Below the pieces are notes generated by a model. That model was not told the origin of the DNA and did not search any database. It saw only the letters and a list, made by a program, of their open reading frames with translations. 64,000 bases of DNA from a bacterium (lineage in GTDB: Bacteria; Patescibacteriota; Minisyncoccia; Phycocordibacterales; VMGT01). Position numbers and translations under genes: made by a program. The stretch is from the NCBI GenBank assembly GCA_030697645.1, contig JAUYPI010000015.1:15583-79582 (forward strand), written 5' to 3'. Below, piece after piece: positions 7,355-62,679 of this stretch (positions are counted from its first letter, which is position 1; the number at the start of each line of letters is the position of its first letter).

Positions 7355-7399
7355 CCGTTTCTTATGAAAGTGCATGTTTTGTAGAATGGCTCGAACTGC

Positions 7400-8135: not shown

Positions 8136-8136
8136 T

Positions 8137-8697: not shown

Positions 8698-8739
8698 GCG
8701 GCGGGAACAGCGCTGTAGCATAAGAAGTGTAAAACGCAA

Positions 8740-8927
8740 AGCGAAAAGCGAAAAACAACAGCACAAAATTTCAAGCTCCAACCAACAAGCTCCAAACAAA
8801 TTCCAATGATTCAAATCTCAATCTCGAAACACGCCGGTTTGAGATTTGAGATTTGGAATTTGAGGTTTATTTGGAAGTTGTTTTTTGGAATTTGGAAATT
8901 CGTTTTCTTTGCGCTTTTCATTTCTGT
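8740..8927. repeat. Composite hairpin-array element (outer arms GCAAAGCGAAAA, inner arms ATTTCCAA / TTGGAAAT, core GAAACACGCCGGTTTGAG)
   Basis: Nested inverted repeats: acgcaaagcgaaaagcgaaaaacaacagcacaaaat...ttccaa... core ...ttggaatttgag...ggaaattcgttttctttgcgc. Ends at the pilB ATG (8928). Confidence 0.75.
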
Positions 8928-10658
8928 ATGAGTTACCTTTCAGTATTAGCAGACAAGGGCTTGCTTAACTCAGAGGACCTCGCGGCCCTTGAAGAGGAGA
9001 TGGTCATCGCGCCCGAGAAGATTGAAGACGGGCTTGTCGCGCGCGGCGTCAGTGCTGAGCAGGTGCTCCGCGCGAAAGGCGGGTACTTCGGACTTCCCGT
9101 GCGTTCGATTTCGAACGAGAAAATCCCCGATGAGATATTGAAGTATATTCCACAGGAATCAGCCCGGCACTACCGCGTTCTACCGCTCGCGCTTGCGGAC
9201 GGCGTCCTTGAGGTCGGCATTGTTGATCCGGAGAATTTCGAGGCACGTGACGCGATTAGTTTCCTCGCGTCAAAAAATCATGTCCCGTTTAAATTTTTTC
9301 TCATATCGCGTGATGATTTTGATCGCGCACTGCGTACGTACGAAGGGCTCACCGCCCAGGTTGGGGAGGCACTCGAGGAGTACGAGACCGAGCTTGGCGG
9401 CGAGGAAGAGGCGATCAGCAAAGCCGCGGAGGATGTCTCGGGGGCGCCGCTTCCTGGGGGCGAGGTGACGACCATCGAGGAAGCGCCGGTGACGAAAATT
9501 GTTGCAACGATCCTTCGCTATGCGATTGAGGGCGGGGCTTCCGACGTCCATATCGAGCCCACGCTCGAGCGCGTACGGGTGCGGTTTCGCGTTGATGGCA
9601 TTTTGCACACGAGCCTCATTTTGCCGATTAAGGTGCACCGCGCCGTGGTAGCGAGGATCAAGGTGCTCTCGAACATAAAACTTGACGAAAAACGCAGACC
9701 GCAGGATGGTCGATTCTCCGCGCGTATCTCGGGGCGCAAGGTCGATTTTCGAGTTTCCTCTTTTCCAGCCTCCGGCGGCGAAAAGGTGGTGCTGCGCATC
9801 CTTGATCAGGAACGAGGTGTGAAGACACTCGAGGGGATCGGCATGCGCGACTCGCATCTCTCTCTCGTGCGGCAGGCGCTGAAGATGCCCTATGGCATGA
9901 TCCTCATCTCCGGTCCGACCGGTTCGGGAAAGTCAACGACGCTCTATGCGATGCTCCAGGAGGTGGATCGCGAGAAGCTGAACGTGGTGAGCCTTGAGGA
10001 CCCGGTAGAGTACCATATCGATGGCGTCGCGCAGTCGCAGGTGATGCCCGAGATCGGATTTACGTTCGCCTCGGGACTCCGTTCTGTACTGCGACAGGAC
10101 CCGGATGTCATCATGGTCGGCGAGATTCGCGACCGCGAGACCGCACAGCTTGCGATCCAGGCCGCGCTCACCGGACATATCGTTTTTTCGACGCTTCACA
10201 CGAACACCGCGGCAGGTGCCATACCGCGACTTATTGATATGGGGGTGGACCCCTATCTTATCGCGCCAACCGTGGTGCTCGTCGTCGCGCAGCGTCTGGT
10301 GCGCACACTCTGCGCCGGGGCGGGCCGTGCGGTCGCCATCGACGGTAGCATTAAACTGATGCTTGAGAAGCAGTTTGCCGACATGCCGAATGCGCATCGC
10401 GATAGGCTGCCTTTGGGAAAAGAAGTATACGAGGCATCGCCGACCCCCGAGTGCGCTTCGGGCGTGCGGGGACGCACCGCCGTCTTCGAGATGTTTCGTA
10501 TGACGAAAGAGCTTGAACGGGTGATTCTCGAAACGCCGACCGAGTCGAGTGTCTATCAACATGTGCGCGAGGTGCAAGGGATGCTCACCATGAAAGAGGA
10601 TGCTATACTGAAGTCATCCGAGCGTATCGTGCCGTTTGAGGAGGTAAATACACTGTGA
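8928..10658 (+). CDS. pilB: Type IV pilus assembly ATPase PilB (GspE family)
   Basis: Walker A LISGPTGSGKSTTLYAML, GspE N-terminal domain, Asp box, His box (HIVFSTLHTN) and the tetracysteine-region equivalent. Start taken at ATG 8928, just after the repeat; the ORF track extends to 8853 inside the repeat. Confidence 0.9.
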   Translation: MSYLSVLADKGLLNSEDLAALEEEMVIAPEKIEDGLVARGVSAEQVLRAKGGYFGLPVRSISNEKIPDEILKYIPQESARHYRVLPLALADGVLEVGIVDPENFEARDAISFLASKNHVPFKFFLISRDDFDRALRTYEGLTAQVGEALEEYETELGGEEEAISKAAEDVSGAPLPGGEVTTIEEAPVTKIVATILRYAIEGGASDVHIEPTLERVRVRFRVDGILHTSLILPIKVHRAVVARIKVLSNIKLDEKRRPQDGRFSARISGRKVDFRVSSFPASGGEKVVLRILDQERGVKTLEGIGMRDSHLSLVRQALKMPYGMILISGPTGSGKSTTLYAMLQEVDREKLNVVSLEDPVEYHIDGVAQSQVMPEIGFTFASGLRSVLRQDPDVIMVGEIRDRETAQLAIQAALTGHIVFSTLHTNTAAGAIPRLIDMGVDPYLIAPTVVLVVAQRLVRTLCAGAGRAVAIDGSIKLMLEKQFADMPNAHRDRLPLGKEVYEASPTPECASGVRGRTAVFEMFRMTKELERVILETPTESSVYQHVREVQGMLTMKEDAILKSSERIVPFEEVNTL

Positions 10659-10731
10659 GCTTGGAGAGTAGAGGGTAGACACGGATAAAACGGCACTGAG
10701 TTGCCCGTCCCACTTTCCACTTTCTCGTCAC

Positions 10732-11121
10732 ATGAGCGAAAATGAAAAACAAAAAAAGCAACTCCTGCTTATTGATGACGATGAGTTTCTCATTGATATG
10801 TACTCCACGAAGTTTACGGGGGCAGGGTTCGCTGTTATGGCGATGCGGAGCGTAGATGAGGCCCTCGGGAAGCTGCGTGAAGGGTACACACCTGCCATTA
10901 TCCTTCTTGATCTTGTCATGCCCACGGTTGGCGGCATTGCATTTTTGAAAGCGAGGCGAGATGAGCGCCTTGCGCCTGATGCGGTCGTCATTGTGCTCTC
11001 AAATCAGAGTGATGAGGCGCGCATCGAGGAGGCGAAGAAGCTTGGGGCGAAGGGATATATTTTGAAAGCGAACACCGTACCGTCGGAGGTATTAGAGCAG
11101 GTGCAGGCGCTTGCGGGTTAA
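10732..11121 (+). CDS. Single-domain response regulator (CheY/PilH-like receiver)
   Basis: 129 aa with receiver-domain acidic pocket residues (LLIDDDE...LLDLVMP) and a conserved K near the C-terminus. Sits between pilB and pilT. Confidence 0.7.
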   Translation: MSENEKQKKQLLLIDDDEFLIDMYSTKFTGAGFAVMAMRSVDEALGKLREGYTPAIILLDLVMPTVGGIAFLKARRDERLAPDAVVIVLSNQSDEARIEEAKKLGAKGYILKANTVPSEVLEQVQALAG

Positions 11122-11232
11122 TTTTCAATGCTCAATTTTCAATCAATTTACAATGGTCCAATTTTCAAACACGACGTCGTTCATCTATTGAAACATTGAA
11201 AATTGAAAATTAGAAATTGAAAATTTTCGTCT
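11122..11232. repeat. Hairpin-array element (AATTTTCAAT family)
   Basis: ttaattttcaatgctcaattttcaatcaatttacaatggtcc - aattttcaaacacgacgtcgttcatct - attgaaacattgaaaattgaaaattagaaattgaaaatt. Ends 9 nt before the pilT ATG. Confidence 0.8.
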
Positions 11233-12294: not shown

Positions 12295-12359
12295 AACGAA
12301 ATTGCTCGACCTGTCACCTGTCGAGGCGGCATGGTTCAAGGTTGCCTGGAGGAGTGCCG

Positions 12360-12531
12360 GCACGAGAAATTTTCAATTTCCAATTTTCAATTTCCAATCA
12401 ATTTTTAATTACTCAATTTTCAAACACGTCGTCGCCATTGAGTCATTGAAGCATTGAAAATTTATTGAAAATTGCTCATTGAAAATTGAAAATTAAAAAT
12501 GTCTGCCTTTGGTTTCCCCCTTTAGCATTTC
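12360..12531. repeat. Hairpin-array element (AATTTTCAAT family)
   Basis: gaaattttcaatttccaattttcaatttccaatcaatttttaattactcaattttcaaacacgtcgtcgccattgagtc ... attgaaaatttattgaaaattgctcattgaaaattgaaaatt. Confidence 0.75.
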
Positions 12532-20582: not shown

Positions 20583-20764
20583 AGCTAGGCGGTGTCTTCA
20601 AGGCATGCGCGCGAGAGTTCTTTGACAACAGAATAAGCATACACACAAGACAAAGCAAAAACAAAACGTCTATTCCTTAAAAAAACAGAGAGCAGAAGAA
20701 GTTGTTCCTTCTTTTGTTCCGTCCACAAATAGGGAGGTTGGAGATACTCCAACTTCTATAATTT

Positions 20765-20803
<39 letters not shown>

Positions 20804-20851
20804 GATAAGGCATGCAAGTCATACGGGCCGCACCTCATTGCATTCGGTGCG

Positions 20852-20990
20852 GAATTTTCAATTTTCAATTTTACAATTTTCAAATAATTTCCAATGATTA
20901 AATTTCCAATTTCCAAACACGACGTCGTCGGCGTTTGAAAATTGACCCATTGAAAATTTATTGAAAATTGAAAATTGATAATTGAAAATT
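20852..20990. repeat. Hairpin-array element (AATTTTCAAT family) inserted in the 16S V1 helix
   Basis: Same arm unit and core (caaacacgacgtcgtcggcgtt) as the pil intergenic copies. Flanked by hairpins ccgcacctcattgcattcggtgcgg and gccgcaccgagtgtggcgaggtgcggc. Confidence 0.8.
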
Positions 20991-21190
20991 CCGCCGCACC
21001 GAGTGTGGCGAGGTGCGGCTAGTGGCGAACGAGGCAGTAATACGCAGGAACGTACCCTGGAGACGGGCATAACCAGCCGAAAGGTTGGCTAATTCCCGAT
21101 GGTCCGAGCACATATTTTTGGAGAAAAACAAAAGGCGCATCCTGTACCTGTATAGATACTTTGGATGCGCCCTGCAACATTGAGCGGTTT

Positions 21191-21310
21191 CTAGAGGAAC
21201 AGGAAAGTAGCAATCATTACGGCGATGATACCGACTAAGACCCAAGACATCCAACGAAGCTGACTTGGGCCATAGTCTATTCTTCCGCTCTGTCCTCTCG
21301 CGATTTTCAT
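21191..21310 (-). CDS. Candidate 39-aa single-TM peptide antisense to the 16S V2 insertion
   Basis: aggaggTCGTCatg SD-ATG, then MKIARGQSGRIDYGPSQLRWMSWVLVGIIAVMIATFLFL. It is below the 60-aa cut-off of the ORF track. Coordinates are approximate to a few nt. Confidence 0.3.
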   Translation of the reverse strand: MKIARGQSGRIDYGPSQLRWMSWVLVGIIAVMIATFLFL

Positions 21311-22157
21311 GACGACCTCCTTTTTCGCTGAAGAAAGAAAAGCATAGGGGTCTATATATTGTCAAGTATCTTACTTGGCTTCCAAAAATATGTGCTCGGT
21401 AAAGGAGCAATCTGCTCCGGGAGCGGCCTGCGGGCTATCAGCTAGTTGGTGGGGTAACGGCCTACCAAGGCTCTGACGGCTAGGGGGGGTGAGAGCCCGA
21501 TCCCCGCCGATGACACTGCGACACGGGTCATACACCTACGGGTGGCAGCAGCCGAGAATATTCGACAATGGGCGAAAGCCTGATCGAGCGACGCCGCGTG
21601 GTGGATGAAGCACTTCGGTGCGTAAACACCTTTTATGAGGGAAGAAGTTCGCCGCACCTCATTGCATTCGGTGCGGACATTTCGATATATCGAAATTTCG
21701 AAATATCGAAATGTCCGCCGCACCGAGTGCAGCGAGGTGCGGCGGATTGACGGTACCTCATGAATAAGGGGCTCCTAATCACGTGCCAGCAGGAGCGGTA
21801 ATACGTGAGCCCCAAGCGTTATCCGGAATCACTGGGCGTAAAGGGTGTGTAGGCGGCCGCGTTAGTCCTCCGTTAAATCCCACGGCTCAACCGTGGAGCT
21901 GCGGAGGATACGGCGCGGCTTGAGGGCGCGAGAGGTGTGCGGAACTCACGGTGTAGGGGTGAAATCCGTTGATATCGTGGGGAACACCAAAAGCGAAGGC
22001 AGCACACTGGCGCGCCCCTGACGCTGAAACACGAAAGCGTGGGTAGCGAAGCAGATTAGATACCTGCGTAGTCCACGCCCTAAACTCTGTCCGCTAGCTT
22101 TTCGGAGTATCGACCCTCTGGGAGGCGAAGCTAACGCGTTAAGCGGACCGCCTGGGA

Positions 22158-22189
<32 letters not shown>

Positions 22190-22722
22190 AGACGGGGACC
22201 AGCACAAGCGGTGGATCATGTGGTTCAATTCGATGGTAAACGAAGAACCTCACCAGGGCTTGAAATCCAGATGAACTCGCCTCGAAAGGGGTGCGGCCTT
22301 CACAAGAGGCATCTGGACAGGTGCTGCATGGTTGTCGTCAGTTCGTGGCTTAAGTTGTTCCCTTTAGTGGGGTAACGAACGCAACCCCCGTCGCCTGTTA
22401 TACGTGTCAGGCGAGACTGCCCAGCCCAAAGTGCGGCTCACTTCGGTTCGCCGCAGAATCAAGAAGTATGAAGTATGAAGTATGGAAATGTACGAAGAAA
22501 AACCATAATTCATGATTCATAATTCTTGCTTCTGCATCGAGCGGAGCGAGATGCATTTCGGGCTGGGAGGAAGGCGGGGATGACGCCAAATCAGCATGGC
22601 CCTCTGACGCCCTGGGCTACACACGTGATACAATGGCCGGTACAACGGGTCGCGACGGGGTAACCCTGAGCCAATCCTTATAAAGCCGGCCTCAGTTCGG
22701 ATTGAGGTCTGCAACTCGACCT

Positions 22723-22757
<35 letters not shown>

Positions 22758-23610
22758 TATACTGCGGTGAATACGTTCTCTGGTCTTGTACTCACCGCCC
22801 GTCATGCTAAGGGAGCCGGGAATACCCGAAACCCCGCCCTTTGCTCGCGGAGCAAAGGGCGGGATATATCGAAATTTTGAAATATCGATATGTCCCGCCC
22901 TTTGTTCACTTCGTGAACAAAGGGCGGGGTTACGGTAAGCTCGGTGACAGGAGCAAAGTCGTTGAGACATACTGTCTTGTTGCGACCTATGTGAGCGATC
23001 ACATAGTAAAACCCAACTGATATCGGTGAACCCCAGCGTACACAATTCACAATTTCTAATTTCAATTTTGAATTAGTCATTGAGAATTCGTAGTTGCGCC
23101 AGCTGGGCAATACCGAGGGAAGCCCACTAGGAGCTAGTTTTTTAACTGGTAACTAGTTGCGGCCCCGTAGAGACTTCCTGCACTTTTCTAGAAGTAGAAG
23201 GCGCAGGGGATGGCGTTGAAAAATTCACGCTATAAAACGTTGGCCCCAGCCGTAAAGTTTCCTAAAGAAACATTACGGCTGGGTGAAGATATAGTCCGTG
23301 CCTCAATGTAAATTGAGGGTAACACATGAACAAGGCACCGGTAGCGGAAGCTGTTGGTGGAATCATTCCTAGATCCCGTCCCAAGGCGCGTAAAGCGCGC
23401 CATGTTTAAATATTTAAATGTTTAAACATGGCCAAAATTCGCTTTGCGAATTTTGGCGAGGACTGATCAGGTCGGTCCGAGGGTGGAAGTTTTTCTTCCA
23501 TTCCTCGGAATCATGCTGTGGCTGTCAGCTAAACCAGCTAGCGGAGTTAGATGCAAATTTAGCTTCCAACCGTGGACGGAACAAAAGAGGGAACAAAAAA
23601 CACTCAAAAA

Positions 23611-23902: not shown

Positions 23903-25276
23903 ATGGTTTCGAAATTAAAGTTCTTGGTCGCAGTATTGCTGATGATTGGTCTTGGTCTGCCCATGTCTATGGTGGCAGCCCCGGCGCCAGATGCAGTGTC
24001 TGTCCTTATTTTGGACAGCACAGTAAGCGGAGGGGCTCTATCGCGTGAGGCAGTACTCGCTGCCGCGAACGGGTTCACAGTGGTAGTTGACAGCGCCGCG
24101 GCCTGGGGCGCGAGAACTATGGCTGAATTCGCGACCTTTAGGGCGATCATTCTCGGTGATGCGACGTGCACGGGCGTTGGCGCGGTGGCCGCCGCCGAAG
24201 CAAACAAGGCAGTGTGGGGGCCAGCGATAGATGGCAACGTGATTATCAACGGTACGGACCCGGTATTTCACCAGGGCCAAGGCGGGGATGCGCTTACCGA
24301 AGGCAGCATTAAGTTTGCGGCTGATGAGCCAACTAAGACAGGCGCCTACATCAGTCTGAGCTGCTATTATGCCGGTGCAGCCTCTGGCACACCCGCGCCT
24401 GTGTTGGATCCTTTTGGCAGTTTTACGGTCGTTGGTCAGGGTGGATGCCCCGCAGATTCGCACATCGTGGCAGTGCACCCGGCGCTTGCTGGGATTACTG
24501 ATGCCAGCCTGTCAAACTGGGGTTGTTCTACCCACAACGGGTTTGTGACGTATCCGGCGGACTTCCTCGTTCTTGCTATTTCCGAGGATATCCCTTCAAC
24601 CTATGTGGCGCCTGATGGATCGACTGGCGCCCCCTATATTCTCGCGCGTGGTGAGACGCTCTCGCCGATTCTGTGCGGGAACGGGATTCTGGAGATGACC
24701 GAGGAGTGCGACGACGGTAACGTTGTCAACGGAGATGGATGTTCTGCCCAGTGCAAGATTGAGGTCTATGTACCTGCGTGCGGGAACGGAATCCTTGATT
24801 CAGGCGAGCAGTGCGACGACGGAAACCTGCTGAATGGGGACGGATGTTCGGATGTCTGTAAGTTCGAGAACCAAGACCCCGATTGTAAGAGCGCGTATCC
24901 TGATCCGGCGACCCTTTGGCCACCGAATCATAAGTACGTGACCGTTTCTGTTCTCGGTGTCACGGATCCTGACGGCGATGCAGTCGTTGTCATGGTGAAC
25001 AGCGTGACGCAGGACGAGCCAGTAAATGGTCTCGGTGACGGCGACACCTCGCCCGATGCCGTGATTAATTCTGACGGTACAGTCAAGGTTCGCGCCGAAC
25101 GCTCCGGAACCCCAAAGGTACCAGGTGATGGACGAGTCTATCACATTGGTTTCATGGCGGAAGACGGCATGGGCGGCAAGTGCGCCGGGACTGTCTTAGT
25201 GTGCGTGCCCCACGACATGGGACAGGGCAGCGTCTGTGTAGACGGCGGACCGCTGTATGACTCGCTCATGCCGTAG
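23903..25276 (+). CDS. Secreted protein: signal peptide, N-terminal domain, two myxo-type cysteine-rich repeats, shared C-terminal domain
   Basis: Signal peptide MVSKLKFLVAVLLMIGLGLPMSMVAAPA. Two C-x-N-G-x-L-E/D-x-x-E-x-C-D-D-G-N-x-x-N-G-D-G-C-S repeats (TIGR02232-like; family from memory). A C-terminal ~130-aa domain (WPPNHK...VTDPDGD...GTPKVPGDGRVYH...VCVPHDMGQGSVCVDGGPLYDSLMP) is shared with 25712..27766. Confidence 0.6.
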   Translation: MVSKLKFLVAVLLMIGLGLPMSMVAAPAPDAVSVLILDSTVSGGALSREAVLAAANGFTVVVDSAAAWGARTMAEFATFRAIILGDATCTGVGAVAAAEANKAVWGPAIDGNVIINGTDPVFHQGQGGDALTEGSIKFAADEPTKTGAYISLSCYYAGAASGTPAPVLDPFGSFTVVGQGGCPADSHIVAVHPALAGITDASLSNWGCSTHNGFVTYPADFLVLAISEDIPSTYVAPDGSTGAPYILARGETLSPILCGNGILEMTEECDDGNVVNGDGCSAQCKIEVYVPACGNGILDSGEQCDDGNLLNGDGCSDVCKFENQDPDCKSAYPDPATLWPPNHKYVTVSVLGVTDPDGDAVVVMVNSVTQDEPVNGLGDGDTSPDAVINSDGTVKVRAERSGTPKVPGDGRVYHIGFMAEDGMGGKCAGTVLVCVPHDMGQGSVCVDGGPLYDSLMP

Positions 25277-25711: not shown

Positions 25712-27766
25712 ATGTTACGACATTATGTAGCGACTGTTTTGGTTGTAGTGATGGCGCTTGTTGCGCCATTGCAATCGGCTCTCGCGGGCCATCTCACCGG
25801 TACTCCGGCAACGTACACGCTCGATGCAGACTTCGACGAGGGCACCCTCGTGAACGTCAACCATACTGATGTGACTGATCAACTTCAGCTCAACAGTGTA
25901 GCTAAGCCATTTGGTTTCATTTGGATCGCCGCATCCGATCGTGGAACGGTGATCAAGATTAACACAGTGACTGGCGCAATTCTCGGCGAATATCGGACTG
26001 CACCTGCAGGCCGCGCGCTTAACCCGTCTCGGACTACCGTTGACAGCAATGGCAGTGTCTGGGCAACAAACCGCAACGAAGGCGACTTTGTCGCAGCCAA
26101 CGCCATTTCACCAGGTATTCCAGCCGCAGGTGGCGGCATGGGTTCTGTCGTCCACATCGGCCTTGAAGAAAACGGGCAGTGTGTGGATCGAAACGGCAAT
26201 GCTGTTATTGATACGTCCGCGGGACTTGGCGATATTAAGCCATGGCTAAACGGCGGCGGTGTTGATAATCTTGGCGGTGTCTCAACCGCCGAGGACGAGT
26301 GTATTATTCACTACACGCGTGTCAACTCAACCTTTTCCCGGCATGTGTCTGTTAATACCAGCAACAATGTGTGGGTCTCTGGCATCGGGGATCGGAACTT
26401 CGACCTCGTTGACGGTGCGACTGGCATGATCATTAGTCAACAGCCATCCGTCGGCTTCGGGGGCTATGGCGGTTTGATTGACGGCGCAGGTGTTATCTGG
26501 TCTGCGCGGCCACTCCTGCGCTGGGATACGGCGCTTCCTTTAGTGGGGCCAAATGGGGATCCTGCGGGATTTAGCATCGGTCCGCCAGCGCCTGCAACCA
26601 ATTGGTCCGGCCAAGGTGCGCCTGATAGTTATGGGCTCTGCATTGACCCATCTGGCAATGTCTGGAATACGCGCTTGTTCGGAAATGCGATTGACAAGTA
26701 CGCGCCGGACGGCACACACCTCGGCACATTTGCCCATGGAAATGGTGAAGCGCAGGGCTGTGTCGCAGACACGAGTGGCCATATCTGGGTTGCACATTCT
26801 TTATTCGGTGCGACCACTGTTGGTCATTTACTGAATGACGGCACCTACGTGGGGAACGTGCCTCTTCCGGGAGGTGTCGGCCCAACTGGTCTTGCCGTGG
26901 ATGCGGCTGGAAAAATTTGGTCTGCTAATATTAGCTCCAATAACGCCTCACGGATTGATCCCTCGTTGGGACCTATCGGTGGAGGCGGAGTTCCTGTCGG
27001 TGCCGTAGACATGACGGTCGCGCTCGGTGCGGGCGCAGGTCCGTATAATTATTCCGACATGACCGGCAGCACCCTGATTGCTGCGCCGAACAATGGCACA
27101 TGGACGATCGTTCATGATAGCGGTGTCGTCGGGCAAGAGTGGGGCAAGGTGAGCTGGACTGCTTCCACGCCGTCCGATAGCATGCTGACGGTGACGGTTG
27201 CGAGTAGTGGCGACGGTTTGATCTTTGGACCTCCGGAAGCCGCGACGAATGGCGGCGATCTGTCGGTCGCGAACGGACAGTATGTGAAGGTGGTCGTGAG
27301 CTTTACGCGCGCGACGACCGGCGAGAGTCCTATCTTGTATGACTTAAGTCTCTCAACGAACGAAGCTCCCGACTGCGACGGTGCCTATGCGGACCCAGGC
27401 GTAATCTGGCCGCCGAATCACAAAATGGTGCCGCTTACAATAAGCGGCGTGACGGATCCTGATGGCGATCCGGTCGTGATCATAGTGACAGGTATCATGC
27501 AGGACGAGCCGACGAACACGCTTGGCGATGGCAACACCGAAGTTGATGGCGCTATTGACATGAGTGGCATGGCTTCTGTTCGTGCCGAACGCACCGGAAC
27601 CCCCAAAGTACCGGGTGACGGACGAGTCTACCATGTGACCTTCGAAGCTGATGATGGCAATGGTGGAAAATGCTCCGGTGTTGCACGGGTCTGCGTACCC
27701 CACGACATGGGACAGGGCAGCGTCTGTGTAGACGGCGGACCGCTGTATGACTCGCTCATGCCATAA
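25712..27766 (+). CDS. Secreted protein: signal peptide, beta-propeller-like repeat region, shared C-terminal domain
   Basis: Signal peptide MLRHYVATVLVVVMALVAPLQSALA. Repeated G-x-h-W-x-x-N blades (NGSVWATN, SGNVWNTR, SGHIWVAH, AGKIWSAN) resembling NHL / SMP-30-type propellers. The final ~130 aa are paralogous to 23903..25276, and the last 25 aa are identical. Confidence 0.6.
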   Translation: MLRHYVATVLVVVMALVAPLQSALAGHLTGTPATYTLDADFDEGTLVNVNHTDVTDQLQLNSVAKPFGFIWIAASDRGTVIKINTVTGAILGEYRTAPAGRALNPSRTTVDSNGSVWATNRNEGDFVAANAISPGIPAAGGGMGSVVHIGLEENGQCVDRNGNAVIDTSAGLGDIKPWLNGGGVDNLGGVSTAEDECIIHYTRVNSTFSRHVSVNTSNNVWVSGIGDRNFDLVDGATGMIISQQPSVGFGGYGGLIDGAGVIWSARPLLRWDTALPLVGPNGDPAGFSIGPPAPATNWSGQGAPDSYGLCIDPSGNVWNTRLFGNAIDKYAPDGTHLGTFAHGNGEAQGCVADTSGHIWVAHSLFGATTVGHLLNDGTYVGNVPLPGGVGPTGLAVDAAGKIWSANISSNNASRIDPSLGPIGGGGVPVGAVDMTVALGAGAGPYNYSDMTGSTLIAAPNNGTWTIVHDSGVVGQEWGKVSWTASTPSDSMLTVTVASSGDGLIFGPPEAATNGGDLSVANGQYVKVVVSFTRATTGESPILYDLSLSTNEAPDCDGAYADPGVIWPPNHKMVPLTISGVTDPDGDPVVIIVTGIMQDEPTNTLGDGNTEVDGAIDMSGMASVRAERTGTPKVPGDGRVYHVTFEADDGNGGKCSGVARVCVPHDMGQGSVCVDGGPLYDSLMP

Positions 27767-54612: not shown

Positions 54613-57600
54613 ATGGATTCTCCATCTCAAGAGCGCATATCGCGCGGTTCTCTTACCGTTCTGGGCGAAGACGATCTGGATGTTCAGCTTCGCGAGGCTG
54701 AGCGCAGTAAGGCGATCCTTAAGGAACGCATGGGGGCAGAGAGCGAGGGTGGCTCAAAAGAAAAACGTTTGGCGGAGCAGGAGCTTCAACGTATGCTCGG
54801 TGAGGGCGATGGCGGCACGGGACGTGAGTCGGAAGTAGAAGCCGCGCGCGGAGAGCGGAACCCGGCACCTTCCACGGAAGGCGCTGAGCGGAGCGATAGG
54901 AAGGTTTCCGCGCCTCCCGAACCTCTGCCGGAGATGGGCTTGGCAAAGAAATTCCCGTCGGTGCCACCTGTGACCGAGAGTTCTCGGAGAGACGAAGACC
55001 CTGCATGGGATGCATTTTTTGGCGACGTAGAGGACGTCTCGCACACGGGAGGGGCCGAGATAGGGGAGCGCGAGGAACCCGCCGCACCTTCCCCGCGAGA
55101 CGCCGCAGCGATTGCGCCAGGGGGTGCGTCGGCTGCGCCTCGGGTATCCGAGCGCGCGGGTGCGGCAGGCGCTGCGGCCGAGTCGGCGGTCCCCATCAAG
55201 CTCGACCAGAGCGAGATGGGCGAGGAGGAGAAAAAGGCAGCGGCGCAAATTTTCGCGGAGATCGAAAAGCTGCCGCCGACCGAGCGCGAGGAGGTGGCGC
55301 TCGGATTTGAGAACTGGAATCTCGCCGTGAAGAAATTTAAGGGCCGTATTATTGACCGCGCGGTGAGCGCGGTGCCCGGTGCGCGCAAAGTCGAGTTTAT
55401 TGATGCGTGGGCGCGCAATTTCAATAAAGAGTATCTTGCGGCAAAGCGTGACATCGAGCGGATTCGCGAGGAGAAAGAGAGCGGCACCTACGCCACAAAG
55501 GGTTGGTGGGGGCAGGCGAAAAACATAGGGTATCTTTACGGTACTGCGGCAAAGTTTGCGCGGCCGGCGCTTTCTGCCGCAGGGTTCATGGGCTGGCCGT
55601 ATAAAGTGTGGATGCTCGGCGCGCTCGCTGCCGCGCGCGCGGCAGAGGTGGGAGCGCAAGTTTCGAGGCAGCGGGTGGCGACGACGCTCCGCGGCATGGA
55701 TGAGAGGGAGGCAGACGAGGCGGCTTCAGAGTTGCGTGCGATGGAGAGCGCGTCTGCTGCGATTAGCCGAGAAGGGGAGGACGCAGAAGCCCGCCGTGAC
55801 TACGAACTTGAGGCGCATGAGGGGCTGCCGGCTGAGTATCAAGCAGCATATGATGAAGCGTGGAATTTGTATGCAGAGGCACGCGAGAAACCCGCTGGGG
55901 GTGAACAGGCGACGAGGGAGGCGCTTGACGCGGTATACGCAAGCAGCCTGCCTCAGGGTCTTGCCGAGCGCATCGCACTCGGAAGCGAAGATCAACAACG
56001 TGATTGGCTTGCACAGCGGATGCAGCGGAAGGTAGGTGAGCGCATCGGAGGAATTGTGCAAGAGATTGATGCGGCGAAGACGCCGGAAGAAAAAGAGGCG
56101 CTGGTGAAAAAACACCGCGCAACGCTTGAGAAGTACGACGCGCTCATTGATTCGACCGGCCGCGTGCACGTGACTGCAGTGCGACTTGATCGGCTTGCGA
56201 CAGCCGGTAAGCTCGCGGTTGCAGGGCTTGCGATTGAGACCGGCGTCAGCGGCGGGTGGGCGCTCGCCGGAGCGGTTAAGTATTGGTGGGAGAGAGTCGA
56301 GCTGGTAGCGAACACAGAGGCGGCTCATTTTGAGAGTCGCGGACAGAAAGCTCCGTTTGAGTTTCGCGACAAAGAAGCTCCGTCTGTGCCTGATGCCCCC
56401 ACACAGCCGCCTACAGCGTCGTCGGCACCACCACCGGTGCCGACCGCGCCGCTCTCTCCGTCACTGCCAGAGGCTCCTGCCGCAGAGGTGAGCGCGGCGG
56501 AGGCGGAGGAGTTACCCAAGGCGCCTGCCGTCGCAGTAGGGGCCGCTGTTGCGCCGCGAATGGATGCAGAAGTCGAGAGTGGTGAGCGTGAACGAGGAAC
56601 TCCCACCGAGGGCGAGCAGTTCTCTGTAGCAGTGGAGGAACCTCACGCGGCAGAGGCGGCATCTCGTGTGGAAGCAGTACCCGAGCAAGCCATTGCGGCC
56701 GAAGAGGTGACAGGGGTACACGCTGGAGTCGAGACAGGACATCGAGGAATCGCGGCGGCAGCGCGAGAGGCTGCGGAGAGTGAGCGTGCGGTGGATAGCA
56801 CTGGCGTGCTCGCGGAGGACGTGGCTACCACAGAGGAGGCCGAAAAAGCAGTTGCCGCCATGCGCGAGACACACGCGGAATCAGTGCTTCCCGGGCGCGA
56901 GAGGCTTCCCGTGCGCAAGGGCGATTCGCCGCTGAGGCTCGCGAAGAAGCTCTACGCAGCGCGTGCGCAAGAACTCGGCTACACCGGTGATATGAAAAAC
57001 GCGGCCGCGCTCGAGCGCTGGGCTACTCGCGCGAGCACGCGGCAGTATGTCGGGCAGTGGCTCGTCGAGCACGCAGGGGATAGCAAAGAGCCGATGGCGC
57101 AGAAGTTTTTTGAAGACGTTGAACACGAGCAGCTCCTCGCGCGCTGGAAGGAGCACGCCGATCGCGGCGCGCTTGAGACGCTCGTGCGGCACCTTCGCGT
57201 CGGGGATTTTAACGATATTCTCAAAGAGAAGGCGCCGAACCTCTCTCTTGCGGGCGGCCATATTGAGCTCGATGAGCGCGGCAATATACTCTCCATTGAC
57301 TCCAAAGGCGATCGTCTCTTGGGCCACAGCGCGGAGCGTCGAGCTTCACTGTCGCCGATCGGAGAACGGGAACCTGTATCTCCGAGGCGCGACACAGTGG
57401 CAGAGCGTGAGCAACCAAGTGTGGTCTCCGTGTCGGGAGAGCATCGTGGTGCGCCCCGCGAGGCAGACACTCCTTTGAGCTACACGTCATTCTGGGAGCG
57501 GAGCGGCTTTGAGAAACCTGCGATCGTTCAGAGCGTGGCGGAGAGGGCGGGGATTACACCGCAGGCACTTGACCGCAGGGAGGAGCTCCTCCTTGACTTC

Positions 57601-58233
57601 TGGGGCAAGCACCCGCACGCTATTGCGCACGACTCGCCCCGCGAGGCGCGTCAGCTTTTTGAGACGCTCTCGCGGGATCCAGCGAAACTTGAAAGCCAGC
57701 TTTCGTTCCTTGACCACTTTGCGTACCGCCGCGAGACGCTCTCCGAAGCCGAGCAGGTGCTTCGCGTGGCCGACTTACTTTCCGAGCGGGTAGCTGCAAC
57801 CGACATCTATCGTTCGATTCTTGCGAATTATGAGGCGGTGCGGCACGTGGCTGATGCTACCCGTCAGGCCGATATTCTCGAACTCTTTCTCTCGCACGGC
57901 GCAAGCAAGCAGCCGCTCGAGCGGCTCACCTTGGGTTGGAACCGTACGCTCTTTCGCGGCGTGTCCGCCTCGCTCGATGAGAGTCTTGATCTCCGTGTGC
58001 GATTTTCGGTACGCAGCAACGCGGTACCAGTAGATATGATTCTCTACCGCAACGGTCGCGTAGCCGTTGACGGGCACGGCTTTGATGGCAATTGGCCAGC
58101 ACGCCGTTTTAAGGCGAATGCCCTACCGCTTACCGAAGACTCGCTTCGCGAAGCACTCGCATTCATTAGCCGATCGGATGGCGAGGGCGCAGTATTCATG
58201 AAGTCCGAGAGGAATGAAGGAATGGGAGGCTAA
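54613..58233 (+). CDS. Large hypothetical membrane-associated protein (1206 aa)
   Basis: Long acidic / Ala-rich low-complexity stretches. Two predicted TM helices at about aa 330-350 and 560-585. The C-terminal ~350 aa are structured. No recognisable family. Confidence 0.4.
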   Translation: MDSPSQERISRGSLTVLGEDDLDVQLREAERSKAILKERMGAESEGGSKEKRLAEQELQRMLGEGDGGTGRESEVEAARGERNPAPSTEGAERSDRKVSAPPEPLPEMGLAKKFPSVPPVTESSRRDEDPAWDAFFGDVEDVSHTGGAEIGEREEPAAPSPRDAAAIAPGGASAAPRVSERAGAAGAAAESAVPIKLDQSEMGEEEKKAAAQIFAEIEKLPPTEREEVALGFENWNLAVKKFKGRIIDRAVSAVPGARKVEFIDAWARNFNKEYLAAKRDIERIREEKESGTYATKGWWGQAKNIGYLYGTAAKFARPALSAAGFMGWPYKVWMLGALAAARAAEVGAQVSRQRVATTLRGMDEREADEAASELRAMESASAAISREGEDAEARRDYELEAHEGLPAEYQAAYDEAWNLYAEAREKPAGGEQATREALDAVYASSLPQGLAERIALGSEDQQRDWLAQRMQRKVGERIGGIVQEIDAAKTPEEKEALVKKHRATLEKYDALIDSTGRVHVTAVRLDRLATAGKLAVAGLAIETGVSGGWALAGAVKYWWERVELVANTEAAHFESRGQKAPFEFRDKEAPSVPDAPTQPPTASSAPPPVPTAPLSPSLPEAPAAEVSAAEAEELPKAPAVAVGAAVAPRMDAEVESGERERGTPTEGEQFSVAVEEPHAAEAASRVEAVPEQAIAAEEVTGVHAGVETGHRGIAAAAREAAESERAVDSTGVLAEDVATTEEAEKAVAAMRETHAESVLPGRERLPVRKGDSPLRLAKKLYAARAQELGYTGDMKNAAALERWATRASTRQYVGQWLVEHAGDSKEPMAQKFFEDVEHEQLLARWKEHADRGALETLVRHLRVGDFNDILKEKAPNLSLAGGHIELDERGNILSIDSKGDRLLGHSAERRASLSPIGEREPVSPRRDTVAEREQPSVVSVSGEHRGAPREADTPLSYTSFWERSGFEKPAIVQSVAERAGITPQALDRREELLLDFWGKHPHAIAHDSPREARQLFETLSRDPAKLESQLSFLDHFAYRRETLSEAEQVLRVADLLSERVAATDIYRSILANYEAVRHVADATRQADILELFLSHGASKQPLERLTLGWNRTLFRGVSASLDESLDLRVRFSVRSNAVPVDMILYRNGRVAVDGHGFDGNWPARRFKANALPLTEDSLREALAFISRSDGEGAVFMKSERNEGMGG

Positions 58234-59393
58234 AATTCTCGGAAATCAAATGTCGGCGTGGTCACACACTGCGCGGTATCGATTATACAAAGGGCAGTAC
58301 AGGTGAGTTGGCCGCCGATGAAACCTTCGCTCTGGCAGGTCGAGGGACCGAAATCTTCAGTGTCGCACTTCTCGGCGAGTTGCCGGATGGCATCCCCACA
58401 CTGGTAAACAAAGAGTGTGACAGGCGCGGTTGCCTCACCGTCCCGGCTATCTCGAATGGTGTAGGTGAAGGTTTCTTCGGGGAGGCTAAAAAATCTGGGG
58501 CTTGCACTTGGTGTGTAGCGGAGTAAGGCACCGCCGCTGATTATGGTAACGGTGCCGTTTGCGGGTTGTGTTACCGACACGATGGTGATGGGGTCGCCGT
58601 CCGGATCGGAGTCCGGGGTTGGGGGTTGCGCTCCGCAGTTTGCAAGTACGTCGAGGTCTGTGGAAAGCGCGACAATGCTTTCATTTGCGAAGCAGTTATC
58701 CGCCACGGCGACGGGCGGATCGTTGAACGTATCGTTGAACGTGACGTCGGTAAACTCGATCCAGCCCGGGCCGCCATCTATGGAGCCATTGCCGTCCGTA
58801 TCGTCGCCTCCCCACGCAAACCCCTGGATTTTGCCGCCGCGCACCTCGAGCACTTCGACGGTGACGCCATGATTGTTTGAGCCCGTGCAGCCGCCCGGTT
58901 CTGACAAGCAATTGAGACTGATCCATCCGTCCCAACCGCCGCCGAAGGAGAGCGCCCGCGCCCAGCCGGTAATGGCGCCGGTGACTCTGTTTGCGCGCGC
59001 CTCACAGGGCGCGAGCGGGCAGCCGGGCTGTGGGTTGAAGTCAATCCAGCCGATGCCTGCAGGCGAGGGGCCCGGGTCGCCTGTTCCTCCCCATGCGTAG
59101 CCGGAGAGAACGTCGGTATTGATGTCAAGGTGCACGCCGTAATTGGTGCTTGCGCAGACGAACGGATCATTCGTGCAGTTGAAGCTGATCCAGCCGAAGC
59201 CGCCGTCAACGACGTCGTCGTTATCATCATCCGCTTCGCTCCATGCCCAACCCGTGAGGTTGTGCGTGCTGTCGGCGTGGGTGAGGGGCAGCAGCGATGT
59301 GTGGAAAAATAGCAGCGCAAGCGCGGCGAGCGCGAGAGGGATGATGATGAAGCCGACGCGCATGCGAAATTTCATACCTCTATAATAGCGCAT
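58230..59393 (-). CDS. Secreted repeat protein
   Basis: Signal anchor and four G-x-A-W...G-W-I-x-F-N-C repeats. A DPDGDPITIVSVTQPANGTVTI segment resembles the C-terminal domain of the 23903 and 25712 proteins. C-terminal Cys-rich tail CGDAIRQLAEKCDTEDFGPSTCQSEGFIGGQLTC. Converges on and overlaps 54613..58233 by 4 nt. Confidence 0.45.
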   Translation of the reverse strand: MRYYRGMKFRMRVGFIIIPLALAALALLFFHTSLLPLTHADSTHNLTGWAWSEADDDNDDVVDGGFGWISFNCTNDPFVCASTNYGVHLDINTDVLSGYAWGGTGDPGPSPAGIGWIDFNPQPGCPLAPCEARANRVTGAITGWARALSFGGGWDGWISLNCLSEPGGCTGSNNHGVTVEVLEVRGGKIQGFAWGGDDTDGNGSIDGGPGWIEFTDVTFNDTFNDPPVAVADNCFANESIVALSTDLDVLANCGAQPPTPDSDPDGDPITIVSVTQPANGTVTIISGGALLRYTPSASPRFFSLPEETFTYTIRDSRDGEATAPVTLFVYQCGDAIRQLAEKCDTEDFGPSTCQSEGFIGGQLTCTALCIIDTAQCVTTPTFDFREF

Positions 59394-59760: not shown

Positions 59761-59811
59761 AAAATTTTACAGATTTGAGATTTGAGTTTAATACGGTGTT
59801 ATACTAACCGC

Positions 59812-62679
59812 ATGGATCTTTCTCCCAACCGGACTCTCGAGCGGCGTTCTGAGAGGCATGAGGACGAGCTCTCGGAGCTTCGAGTGCGTCTTGCCCAGGC
59901 TGAGCTCGCGGCTGAGCGCGCGCGCGGGGAGCGGCTGTCTCACGAGACCCGGGAGCGCCTCGCGAGCGAGGAACTTACAAGACACCGCGAGGAGCAAGAG
60001 GCGCACGGCGCGGCGAGCCCGGCCGAGACGGCGGCGATCGTGCTTGACCTCGCGCCGGAGAGTCATGATAGTCAGGTCGGGCTCCTCCTTGGCGTCGCAC
60101 GAGATCAGAGTGTCGGCGTGGCGCTTTCCGCCGCGCACAAGCTCGGCAATCCCCACATCGAGGACGATTTTCACCGCGCGCTCGTCGAGTATATCCGCGA
60201 GGGCTATCCCGCCGAGGGAGTGCGCGAGCGGGATCGGCTTTGGAAAGTGCTCCACATGACGCTCTACGAGATTCTCTTGCCGGAATTGCCGCAGGGAGGC
60301 GAGGCGCGCGAGCGCGGTCTCAAAGGGGTGCTCTCTTCGATGGAGCAGTTTTACTCCGGGATGCGCTCGCTTGCCGAGGGAGCGCGGGGAGGGGACATAT
60401 ACGCGCTCGAACTTGCGCTCCCAAACGTCGGGGACGAGGTGAGCTTCTACGTCGCGGTGCCGAGCGCGCGGCGCGACCTCTTTGAAAAGCAGCTGCTTGC
60501 CGTCTTCCCGCGCGCCGAGATCATTCCGCAGCACAACGACTACAACATTTTCAATGAGCGCGGAGCGCATGCGGCGGTGGTCGCGGCGTTTGGTGCGCGG
60601 CCGGCCTTGCCGCTCCGGCTTTACGAGAGCTTCGACTATGATCCTCTCAATGTCATCGCGAATGCGTTTTCAAAAATAGAACGCGCGGGCGAGGGCGCGG
60701 CGCTTCAGTTCCTGGTTCGCCCCTCGGGCGGCGAGCGCTACCAGCGGCACTTTCGCACCATACTGAAGAACGTGCGTGAAGGGATGCTGCTCGCGGAAGC
60801 GCTCGAAACCCCGGAGAGCATACTTGGCGAGTTCGCGGCGAGCGTGCGGGATTTTGTTTTCCAGCGAAAAAAATCGAAACGCGAGGAAGAAGACAGAAAA
60901 CAAAAACCGCCGAGCGTAGACCAGGCAGGAGTGGAACTCCTCGAGCGCAAGGTGGCGACTCCTCTCGTCGAGGCCGCAATCCGCATCGTCGCGTCGGCTG
61001 GAGACGAGCCCCGGGCCCGGGCGATCCTCGACGAACTTGTCGCCGCGTTCCACCAGTTTGAGGACCCGCAGGGGAACCGCCTGCGCTTCTCTCGTCTCTC
61101 GCGCGGCGCGCTCTCTGCCGGCCTTCGCTCCTTCAGTTTTCGCGAGACCGGCGCCGCACCTCTGCTCCCGCTCTCGCTCCGCGAGCTCACTACGCTCTTT
61201 CATTTCCCGGTCGCAGGAGAGCTCGCGACGCCGCAGGTGAGGTTCTCACGCGCTCGAGCCGGCGCGGCGCCCGCGCTCGCCTCGTTTAGAGATACATCCC
61301 GAGCGGTGAGCGCCCCTGCCGCGGCAAGCTCCGCTTATAGCGATCGCGTCGTACGCGACGCGACTTCGGGTGCGACGAGCGCAGCTCGGCAGAGCGAGGG
61401 GGTGGCGCTCGGCGTGAACCGCTTTCGTGGCGCCGAGACTCGCGTCTCGATCGCGCCGGAGGACCGGTTGCGGCATCTCTATGTGATCGGCCAGACCGGG
61501 ACGGGCAAGTCGACGCTCCTGCGGAACATGATCGTCGAGGACATCGCCGCGGGCGAAGGCGTGTGCATGATAGATCCGCACGGCTCGGATGTCGCGGAAG
61601 TGCTTGCGGCCGTGCCGCGCGAGCGCTACGGTGACGTGATTTACTTTGACCCGGGCTATAGCGCGCGTCCGATGGCGCTCAATATGCTCGAGTATGACTC
61701 GAGGCACCCGGAGCAAAAAACGTTCGTCGTGAACGAGCTCCTCGGCATTTTCCGCAAGCTCTTCGGCGCAGTCCCCGAGTCGATGGGGCCAGCGTTCGAG
61801 CAGTACTTCCGCAACAGTGCGCTTCTCGTGATGGAGGATCCCGCCTCCGGCAACACCCTCGTTGATGTCGCGCGCGTCTTATCCGACAAGCGTTTTCGCG
61901 AGCGGAAACTCGCGCAGAACCGCAACCCCCTCATCGCGCAGTTCTGGGAGAATGCCGAGCGCACGACCGGCGAGCAGGCGCTCGCGAACTTCGCGCAGTA
62001 CGTGACCAACAAGTTCGACGTCTTCCTCTCGAATGACGTCATGCGTCCGATCATCGCGCAGCAGCATTCGGCGTTTTCGTTCCGCGACGTGATGGACGGG
62101 CGGAAAGTGCTGCTCGTCAATCTCGCTAAGGGGCGGCTCGGGGATATCAACGCGCACCTCATCGGGCTTGTTCTCGTGGGGAAAATCTTGATGGCTGCGC
62201 TCTCGCGGGTTGACACCCCCGGGCTCGCGCTCCCGCCGTTTTACCTCTATCTTGACGAGTTTCAAAACATTACGACCGACTCGATTGCGGTGATCCTCTC
62301 CGAGGCGCGCAAGTACGGCCTCGGACTCACGATCGCGCACCAGTTTATCGGCCAGCTCTCGGAGAACATCCGCGACGCGGTCTTCGGCAATGTCGGTTCA
62401 CTCGTCGCGTTCCGCGTCGGCGCGGACGACGCCGAGGTGCTCGAGAAGCAGTTCGCGCCGGACTTCCGGGCGCACGACCTGATGAATATCGAAAACCGAA
62501 ACGCGTACGTGCGCCTGCTCTCGCACGGCCGTCCGACGAAGCCTTTCACGATTGAGACTGAGCCGCCGGAGAGCGGCGAGCCACTACAGGTTGAAGACTT
62601 GAAGCTCCGGTCTTATACCCGCTACGGCCGTCCGCGGGAGGAAGTGGAGAACGAAATCTTAGAGCGATATCGAGCGTAA
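59812..62679 (+). CDS. VirD4/TraG/TraD-like coupling-protein-type ATPase with a ~450-aa N-terminal domain of unknown function
   Basis: Walker A YVIGQTGTGKSTLLRNM, Walker B FYLYLDEFQN, then SEARKYGLGLTIAHQFIGQL...GNVGSLVAFRVGADDAE, which matches the T4SS coupling-protein C-terminal region (ARKYG...QS.SQL). No N-terminal TM segments. The family assignment is from memory, not a search. Confidence 0.55.
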   Translation: MDLSPNRTLERRSERHEDELSELRVRLAQAELAAERARGERLSHETRERLASEELTRHREEQEAHGAASPAETAAIVLDLAPESHDSQVGLLLGVARDQSVGVALSAAHKLGNPHIEDDFHRALVEYIREGYPAEGVRERDRLWKVLHMTLYEILLPELPQGGEARERGLKGVLSSMEQFYSGMRSLAEGARGGDIYALELALPNVGDEVSFYVAVPSARRDLFEKQLLAVFPRAEIIPQHNDYNIFNERGAHAAVVAAFGARPALPLRLYESFDYDPLNVIANAFSKIERAGEGAALQFLVRPSGGERYQRHFRTILKNVREGMLLAEALETPESILGEFAASVRDFVFQRKKSKREEEDRKQKPPSVDQAGVELLERKVATPLVEAAIRIVASAGDEPRARAILDELVAAFHQFEDPQGNRLRFSRLSRGALSAGLRSFSFRETGAAPLLPLSLRELTTLFHFPVAGELATPQVRFSRARAGAAPALASFRDTSRAVSAPAAASSAYSDRVVRDATSGATSAARQSEGVALGVNRFRGAETRVSIAPEDRLRHLYVIGQTGTGKSTLLRNMIVEDIAAGEGVCMIDPHGSDVAEVLAAVPRERYGDVIYFDPGYSARPMALNMLEYDSRHPEQKTFVVNELLGIFRKLFGAVPESMGPAFEQYFRNSALLVMEDPASGNTLVDVARVLSDKRFRERKLAQNRNPLIAQFWENAERTTGEQALANFAQYVTNKFDVFLSNDVMRPIIAQQHSAFSFRDVMDGRKVLLVNLAKGRLGDINAHLIGLVLVGKILMAALSRVDTPGLALPPFYLYLDEFQNITTDSIAVILSEARKYGLGLTIAHQFIGQLSENIRDAVFGNVGSLVAFRVGADDAEVLEKQFAPDFRAHDLMNIENRNAYVRLLSHGRPTKPFTIETEPPESGEPLQVEDLKLRSYTRYGRPREEVENEILERYRA

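Follow-up and report, generated by a model that had tools for sequence, protein, structure and literature searches.

A predicted secreted protein of a Patescibacteria bacterium belongs to a large, unnamed family with a Trp-rich N-terminal module and a C-terminal peptide

The present analysis concerns a minus-strand gene at positions 58230 to 59393 of a 64,000-nucleotide stretch of DNA (hereafter, the window) from a bacterium of the Patescibacteria, or Candidate Phyla Radiation (CPR), contained in contig JAUYPI010000015.1 of assembly GCA_030697645.1. An original prediction had noted that the 387-residue product (hereafter, the target) carries four Trp-rich repeats, a DPDGDP-ITIV-SVTQ motif and a Cys-rich tail, and had proposed that it forms a lineage-specific family of secreted proteins with two proteins encoded in tandem after the 16S rRNA gene. 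We found that the target belongs, as an atypical member, to a large family that is unnamed and restricted to Patescibacteria. Its similarity to the tandem pair, as judged by sequence comparison, is remote domain-superfamily homology only and is not significant pairwise.

Architecture of the target

The following features were delineated in the gene:

58230..59393, minus strand: open reading frame (ORF) of the target, 387 residues; stop codon at 58230-58232
59274..59393, minus strand: leader, residues 1-40 (sequence inspection)
58728..59273, minus strand: N-terminal four-unit Trp-rich beta-repeat module (N-module), residues 41-222 (family profile, motif positions, AlphaFold2)
58413..58724, minus strand: Big_9/cadherin-like bacterial Ig domain, residues 224-327 (Pfam, Foldseek)
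58542..58619, minus strand: the previously flagged motif TPDSDPDGDPITIVSVTQPANGTVTI, residues 259-284, inside the Big_9 domain (D-S-D-P-D-G-D-P)
58266..58400, minus strand: six-Cys tail (C332, C343, C353, C365, C369, C376; sequence, with TIGR02232 below its cutoff)
58233..58256, minus strand: extreme C-terminal peptide P-T-F-D-F-R-E-F-COOH, the form that the family motif P-x-[WFY]-x-E-[IFV] takes in this lineage

The ORF has two alternative starts, M7 (381 residues, the NCBI record) and M11 (377 residues, the form of P0001); the NCBI label is "Ig-like domain-containing protein [bacterium]". By inspection, the leader comprises a basic n-region, an 18-residue hydrophobic core and a signal-peptidase-I-type site between T-H-A and D-S. 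Cleavage is thus predicted 7 residues ahead of the first G-W-A-W, and AlphaFold2 (AF2) predicts a helix at residues 7–29. Sec-type leaders are likewise apparent by inspection in both proteins of the tandem pair, in keeping with the proposal that all three are secreted and modular. With 14 Cys residues in addition, the target is probably a Sec-exported, disulfide-rich modular surface protein; its Cys content fits the MdbA-like disulfide machinery enriched in CPR bacteria (PMC6744442). Two other identities were considered for its termini. A type IV pilin was rejected: the leader, MKFRMRVGFIIIPLALAALALLFF running to the THA/DS site, has no G-F-T-L-I-E, and the target has no pilin family match in Pfam or NCBIfam. 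A sortase substrate was rejected as well, as the C-terminus (…CVTTPTFDFREF) has no hydrophobic segment after the motif, and the combination of an LPXTG-like motif, hydrophobic helix and basic tail is missing. No PADLOC defence model matched the target.

All four of the previously described G-x-AW…GWI-x-F units could be located. They span residues 44–93, 94–139, 140–186 and 187–222, with G-x-A-W/R at residues 48, 98, 143 and 191 and G-W-I-x-F/L at 67, 115, 156 and 210. Each unit is laid out as a G-x-A-W strand, a turn, a G-W-I-x-F strand, a short Cys-Cys loop and a Y/H-G-V strand. Unit 3 runs GWAR…GWISLNC, and unit 4 runs GFAW…GWIEFTD. AF2 models the N-module confidently as all-beta, with predicted local distance difference test (pLDDT) scores mostly of 80–94 in the target and 85–96 in a canonical family member, P0090.

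The segment that follows is a bona fide Big_9 domain. Pfam Big_9 matches it over model positions 1–88 of 89 (E 2.7e-17, 63.9 bits, cutoff 23.6), and Cadherin_4 (E 6.3e-9, 36.7 bits, cutoff 25.1) and Cadherin_5 (E 2.8e-6, 27.5 bits, cutoff 26.5) also exceed their thresholds. Foldseek gave local matches to cadherin-like modules, such as SraP 4m02 (probability 0.96). The NCBIfam tandem-95 repeat NF012211 scored 26.5 bits, as a single copy and below its 90-bit cutoff.

The tail, CGDAIRQLAEKCDTEDFGPSTCQSEGFIGGQLTCTALCIIDTAQC, indeed contains six Cys within residues 332–376. In its first half, CGD-x7-E-x-CD, it is similar to the cysteine-rich acidic (myxo) repeat: TIGR02232 aligns model positions 3 to 16 or 17, this first half only, at 12.8 bits (cutoff 20.8). 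On ortholog tails the same model reached 14.6–17.8 bits, again below cutoff, and was the sole NCBIfam match in all four orthologs scanned. DUF4215 (cutoff 27 bits) did not match the target; it matched weakly only in a divergent relative, P0046 (E 0.021). The pLDDT of the tail is below 40.

A Patescibacteria family with two hallmarks

A search with the whole protein returned six close orthologs of the same architecture (66–81% identity) and then two mutually unrelated classes of matches. One class consisted of Big_9-only proteins, mostly proteobacterial. Members of the other matched the N-terminal half only, carried differing downstream domains and came from Patescibacteria/Parcubacteria wherever the source is named. 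The family module was defined by aligning sequences that matched only this N-terminal half, and the resulting profile was searched exhaustively against 1.84 billion representatives (clusters at 50% identity). It found 9,154 clusters at E ≤ 1e-3, 6,821 at ≤ 1e-10 and 1,523 at ≤ 1e-30. The repeat module is therefore real and not a chance pattern. A scan of species-representative genomes confirmed 357 relatives of the module, and among the best 80 of these 357 loci, every title that names a lineage names Patescibacteria. The target matches the profile with 152 bits (E 2.6e-46) and is the sole N-module gene in the window.

In the family consensus, the module occupies ~140 residues in four units. 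The first two read …NLSGYAWSxNIGWISFNCTN…C…NYGV…G.LSGYAWSxNIGWISFN…GCP..C, and the last two read …TGWARALS.GGGWDGWISL…YGV…F.GYAWG.DV.GWI.F. Unit 3 of the target bears the family hallmark GWARAL..GGGWDGWISL. The module starts at residue 25–48 in most members listed, and a hydrophobic stretch with a small-x-small site stands just ahead of it in 121 of the 131 members examined; a minority of the family has internal or tandem copies in giant proteins. The middle domains vary and include Ig_Rha78A_N, PKD, ConA-like/Laminin_G, TSP3, Big_13, Lcl_C and fn3 and, rarely, Big_9, as in the target. No recurrent enzyme domain was seen among this cargo.

Units 1, 2 and 4 have, within the target’s lineage, turns that are enlarged by 9–11 Asp/Gly-rich residues (e.g., DDTDGNGSIDGG). 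The insertions fall at residues 52–66, 102–113 and 195–209, where canonical members have the turn S-E-N-I, and units 1 and 4 share D-x-D-G-x-x-x-Φ-D-G-G-x-G-W. We infer that these expanded turns resemble DxDxDG calcium-binding loops. Together, the DxDGxxxΦDGG loops and the DxDxDGD turn of the Big_9 domain make it probable that the target is Ca2+-dependent.

The original prediction had called for a database search with the repeat, and the family that this search uncovered has no counterpart in the collections consulted. Neither Pfam nor NCBIfam has a model matching the N-module in the target or in the family members scanned, and the module profile found only noise among PDB sequences (best match an antibody Fv, E 0.04). 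Foldseek searches of PDB and BFVD yielded no solved or viral structure resembling the module, the matches being generic Ig/cadherin ones only; the top PDB rows, the peptide-binding domains of FrhA and MpIBP, were rejected at a TM-score of 0.14 and a root-mean-square deviation above 20 Å. Literature searches for module strings (GWISFN, GGWDGW) and for a Patescibacteria sorting signal returned no earlier description of either the N-module or the C-terminal peptide, the family’s two hallmarks.

The second of these hallmarks emerged from the extreme C-termini: a short conserved peptide closes nearly all full-length members. The pattern [FWY]-x-E occurs in the last 8 residues of 110 of 198 N-module proteins (56%), vs. 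1 of 181 controls (0.5%); the controls were 61 Big_9-only proteins (1 match) and 120 proteins with the module of the tandem pair (0 matches). Although Pro was not part of the search pattern, 91 of the 110 motif-bearing members have it at -4, and in 90 of them the Glu is followed by I, F or V. The distance from the Glu to the C-terminus is 1 residue in 54 cases and 4 residues in 31 (…E-Φ-x-P-x). The target’s F-x-E-F-COOH is canonical in this respect; its Pro at -6 and Phe at -4 make up the variant P-x-F-x-F-x-E-F-COOH, which is common to all six of its orthologs. In the genome loci, the strict motif was present in 29 of 75 family genes, compared with 4 among 687 genes outside the family (Fisher p 6.5e-28).

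Three of those four other carriers are secreted proteins of 733–888 residues that are encoded immediately upstream of a family gene. They have no detectable N-module (L020 3641-5842, L025 3556-5847 and L075 2405-5071) and end in …PLFPGYIEI, …PLFPGYVEI and …PLYPGYREF, respectively. As the motif occurs on adjacent proteins that do not have the N-module, the peptide can occur alone, like an independent C-terminal signal. AF2 was run on the target and on P0090 for docking of the peptide on the N-module. The peptide was an undocked coil in both models, a result that is uninformative for an interaction in trans.

The tandem pair and the genomic neighbourhood

The proteins with which the target had been grouped are encoded on the plus strand:

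23903..25276, plus strand: 457-residue protein of the tandem pair
24674..24862, plus strand: DUF4215/TIGR02232 repeats of the 457-residue protein, upstream of its C-terminal module
24866..25273, plus strand: C-terminal module of the 457-residue protein, probably divergent Big_9-type, WPPNHK…DPDGD…QDEP…VCVPHDMGQGS
25712..27766, plus strand: 684-residue protein of the tandem pair
27356..27763, plus strand: C-terminal module of the 684-residue protein, 65% identical to that of the 457-residue protein

The counterparts of TPDSDPDGDPITIVSVTQPANGTVTI that had been reported in the pair are both present: GVTDPDGDAVVVMVNSVTQDEP in the 457-residue protein (24956..25021) and GVTDPDGDPVVIIVTGIMQDEP in the 684-residue protein (27446..27511). 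The two proteins have in common a 141-residue C-terminal stretch (65% identity, E 7e-62), of which the module itself takes up 136 residues. BLASTP comparisons of the target with the pair gave, at best, segments of 11–23 residues around DPDGD with E values of 0.02–0.05 in a single-pair search, and there was no alignment outside this region. The WPPNHK, QDEP and VCVPHD motifs of the pair module are absent from the target. Conversely, the pair has neither the N-module nor the C-terminal peptide.

The suggested profile-profile comparison was carried out with hhalign on profiles of the target’s Big_9 domain and the pair’s C-terminal module, with 120 sequences each. It returned a probability of 88% (P 2.8e-6) with a confident core that is confined to the last 21 columns (FTYTIxDGxGG…VTVxV); under permissive or global settings, the alignment extended to 94 columns with both DPDGD motifs in register. 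Pfam Big_9 did not match the window’s own two pair modules at E ≤ 1. It did run almost end to end on homologs of the module, above the 23.6-bit cutoff in P0164 (29.2 bits) and P0207 (25.9 bits) and just below it in P0131 (21.8 bits) and P0122 (20.5 bits). The hhalign result and the matches to homologs indicate that the pair module is probably a divergent Big_9-type domain and that the flagged motif is the generic acidic turn of this superfamily. The claimed motif match thus holds insofar as all three proteins probably have a Big_9/cadherin-like domain with a D-P-D-G-D turn.

The supposedly common Cys tail fared no better. True TIGR02232 repeats occur in the 457-residue protein (two copies, E 4e-28), which has the CG[DN]G…E-x-CD half-motif in common with the target’s below-threshold tail, but not in the 684-residue protein, and the pair’s Cys-containing C-termini are unrelated to the target’s tail. 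Relatives of the pair module at 61–64% identity come from metagenomes, with Deltaproteobacteria, Acidobacteria, Planctomycetota and Gaiellaceae as the named sources; the module co-occurs with DUF4215, TSP3 and Por-tail domains.

Additional features of the pair’s surroundings were recorded. The N-terminal ~250 residues of the 457-residue protein (23903-24670, plus strand) have no Pfam match at E ≤ 0.01, and the 684-residue protein carries an SGL/NHL-type beta-propeller (25712-27355, plus strand; SGL E 2.4e-10). The common C-terminal module ends in a conserved VCVPHDMGQGSVCVDGGPLYDSLMP tail. Upstream of the pair, the match to the 16S rRNA gene (20758..23009) covers 2,252 bases vs. the 1,533 positions of the model, which indicates large insertions. 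Its 3' end is overlapped by a group I intron at 22954-23318 (RF00028, 51.8 bits). Insertions and introns of this kind are typical of CPR rRNA genes.

Closer to the target lies the following gene:

59782..62679, plus strand: 965-residue ATPase, type IV secretion system (T4SS) coupling-protein-like/HerA-like, divergent from the target (Pfam and synteny)

The ATPase matches DUF87, TrwB_AAD_bind, TraG-D_C and T4SS-DNA_transf in Pfam and the HerA and mad8 models in PADLOC. An ATPase of 961–965 residues is divergent from the target gene in every ortholog contig examined, with identities of 85% (L083-85) and 63% (L086) and a match at the edge of L001. In GCA_034376905.1 (L082 2150-2857), the coupling-protein-like gene is called as two genes of 235 and 700 residues; the window’s ORF is 99.8% identical over 962 residues to this stretch, and the split is probably a gene-calling difference. 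On the other side of the target, a convergent gene encodes a 1,206-residue low-complexity protein (54613-58233, plus strand) that has no family matches and whose stop overlaps that of the target by 4 bases; a homolog exists in at least one ortholog contig.

Judged from ORF sequences, the window also holds a type IV pilus cluster at 5411-13773:

5411-6616: PilM-like
6698-8135: two small membrane proteins
8853-10658: PilB/GspE
11233-12294: PilT
12532-13773: PilC

The PilB-like product (8853..10658) ends in PFEEVNTL. This ending was rejected as a coincidental likeness to the family peptide, given that the protein has no N-module and, from its sequence, looks like an ATPase of the GspE/PilB type. 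Genes for PilB-like and PilC-like proteins recur in 8–9 of the 80 family loci.

In those loci, a second unannotated family of Patescibacteria secreted proteins adjoins the N-module genes; its 68 members are spread over 44 of 80 loci, all on the same strand and often abutting. One to five of them stand beside an N-module gene (e.g., L050 7233-11837, L079 1679-5311 and L070 6556-8791). The layout is a leader, a conserved AWTxPxxxPPxGNxxAPINVGxxxQxKxGxL segment with no Pfam or NCBIfam model, and variable C-termini, some of which match Peptidase_S74 (endosialidase/tail-fibre chaperone, E 8.7e-13) or, weakly, a phage tail-collar domain. This tail-fibre-like family was searched for in the 64-kb window and is absent from it.

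Interpretation and comparison with known systems

The domain order, the family membership, the taxonomic restriction, the co-occurrence of N-module and C-terminal peptide and the variable middle are all shown by the sequence data, and they suggest that the constant ends serve as handles. We consider it fairly likely that the target is a displayed, adhesin-type envelope protein whose ends provide retention or assembly. After leader cleavage, the mature protein would consist of the ~180-residue N-module, one Big_9 domain, a six-Cys knot and the exposed C-terminal peptide. The N-module may keep the protein on the envelope, at the cell wall or S-layer, or may link it to a partner. The peptide, with its free carboxy terminus, could be read there as a signal for recognition, sorting or assembly, and the variable middle, here the Big_9 domain and Cys knot, would offer a binding surface for cell-cell or host contact. 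In Paceibacteria, secreted Ig/PKD proteins show high expression, and a role in attachment has been proposed for them (PMC10936435).

A broader reading, which we regard as possible but tentative, is that the N-module and the P-x-[WFY]-x-E-[IFV] peptide constitute an undescribed, Patescibacteria-wide system for surface display or assembly. The peptide, having no membrane anchor, might be read by an envelope receptor or, with head-to-tail fibres as the outcome, by the N-module. Hundreds of adhesin-like cargos, together with the co-operonic AWTxPxxxPPxGNxxAPIN proteins, would then be mounted on the episymbiont surface for host contact.

Other explanations were weighed against these data. That the target and the tandem pair form a lineage-specific family built from private modules (the DPDGD domain and the Cys tail) is now very improbable and has been largely refuted. 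The leaders of all three proteins, the register of the DPDGD motifs in the permissive alignment and the half-motif in the 457-residue protein speak for it. Against it, BLASTP is not significant, the homology is at the level of the Big_9 superfamily with its 21-column core, Big_9 domains are pan-bacterial, the pair module has its closer relatives outside the CPR wherever sources are named, the target’s tail is below the TIGR02232 cutoff, and the pair has neither family hallmark. What remains is essentially a generic cadherin/Big-like DxDGD turn and no broader homology. Pure chance similarity between unrelated acidic loops, as the brevity and marginal E values of the pairwise match might be read, is even harder to credit in view of the hhalign P value, the end-to-end Big_9 matches on homologs of the pair module and the motifs’ register.

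A further, unlikely explanation is that the target is the subunit of a head-to-tail polymer in which the C-terminal peptide would insert as a strand or ligand into the next N-module, with the variable middle arrayed along the filament. The logic would be that of donor-strand exchange in chaperone-usher, type V and CPR Pam pili. The conserved termini with a variable middle, the tightly constrained distance from motif to C-terminus and the operon-like linkage to tail-fibre-like proteins are consistent with such a fibre, as is the existence of donor-strand-exchange pili in CPR bacteria (bioRxiv 10.64898/2026.03.03.709456). However, AF2 docked the tail in neither model (with the caveat stated above), the motif is also found on adjacent proteins lacking the N-module, and no chaperone- or usher-like neighbour recurs across the family loci. 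It is rather improbable, too, that the target is a T4SS-associated adhesin of its own lineage, one that would function like PrgB and share its regulation with the divergent ATPase. The conservation of the divergent gene pair and the ATPase’s TrwB, TraG and DUF87 signatures favor this proposal, and it is attractive because the PrgB-type role is vacant in Patescibacteria: a study of their T4SSs found no PrgB-type adhesin (PMC12102498). Yet no VirB4, VirB6, VirB8 or relaxase was evident around the pair by ORF inspection, in which not every window ORF was scanned. The ATPase also matches defence-type models and stands beside canonical family genes in just 2 of the 80 loci, and the argument is one of adjacency; divergent adjacency by itself is no proof of co-function. 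The adhesin-type reading with constant ends is thus the one that we favor.

The kinship between the target and the pair reduces to one of the commonest bacterial Ig-type domains and is, in this sense, ordinary. To our knowledge, CPR bacteria are obligate episymbionts whose host-contact machinery is largely unknown beyond type IV pili and Pam pili. An exported family of ~9,000 clusters, in which the lectin/Ig cargo is exchangeable and the C-terminal peptide free, is a testable candidate for CPR surface decoration, and thousands of proteins now labelled “hypothetical” or “Ig-like/PKD domain” would be better annotated once the N-module family is defined.

Among known systems, the target’s middle is closest to the Big_9/cadherin-like Ig domains (PF17963, PF17803, PF17892; “tandem-95”/VCBS-type), of which it has the D-x-D-x-D-G-D turn and the …TI-x-x-V…G-T…Y-T-P…F-T-Y-T-I-x-D…V-T-V pattern. 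It differs in being a single copy rather than part of a long tandem array and in being flanked by the N-module and the C-terminal peptide; by patterns that include the Pro or require the exact ending, the peptide is found in none of the 61 Big_9-only matches, mostly proteobacterial. Like the cysteine-rich acidic repeat (TIGR02232 myxo_disulf_rpt/DUF4215), the target’s tail opens with CG[DN]G-x7-E-x-CD and is acidic and rich in disulfides, but the second half of the tail (DFGPSTCQ..GF.GGQL.C…C..DT..C) is distinct.

The choline- and glucan-binding aromatic hairpin repeats (CW_binding_1) are short, Gly/Trp/Tyr-rich tandem hairpins at one end of a protein that mediate envelope retention. The N-module is comparable by analogy only, in that its beta-hairpins are arranged in tandem and stand at one end of secreted proteins whose other parts vary; its units are longer (~35–45 vs. 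20 residues), are fixed at four and include a specialised third. Neither the target nor any of six canonical members gave a Pfam match at E ≤ 1 to CW_binding_1/2, SLH, LysM or SH3b, and identity with such a cell-wall-binding repeat was rejected on this ground. C-terminal sorting signals (LPXTG/sortase, PEP-CTERM, PGF-CTERM) are, similarly, short conserved motifs at the carboxy terminus. The family motif is also short, C-terminal and Pro-initial, and is found on unrelated passenger domains and on co-located genes. It is, however, followed by no transmembrane helix or basic tail, the chain ending 1 or 4 residues past the Glu, and a membrane-embedded transpeptidase mechanism is therefore unlikely.

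Finally, the CPR Pam pili (PamA/PamB) assemble through conserved strands and feature a nine-strand sandwich together with a linker strand and a truncated Ig domain (bioRxiv 10.64898/2026.03.03.709456). The target’s architecture is unlike this, and no PamC/D-like chaperone neighbours were seen. The target had no NCBIfam CPR_pilus_* match at E ≤ 1 and was rejected as a Pam pilus component; the sole Pam-type match seen was that of PamR (14.9 bits, cutoff 300) to the Ig region of one family member. What the two groups have in common is their general character as CPR-specific, Sec-exported, disulfide-containing and Ig-rich extracellular proteins, which for the target is predicted from its sequence.

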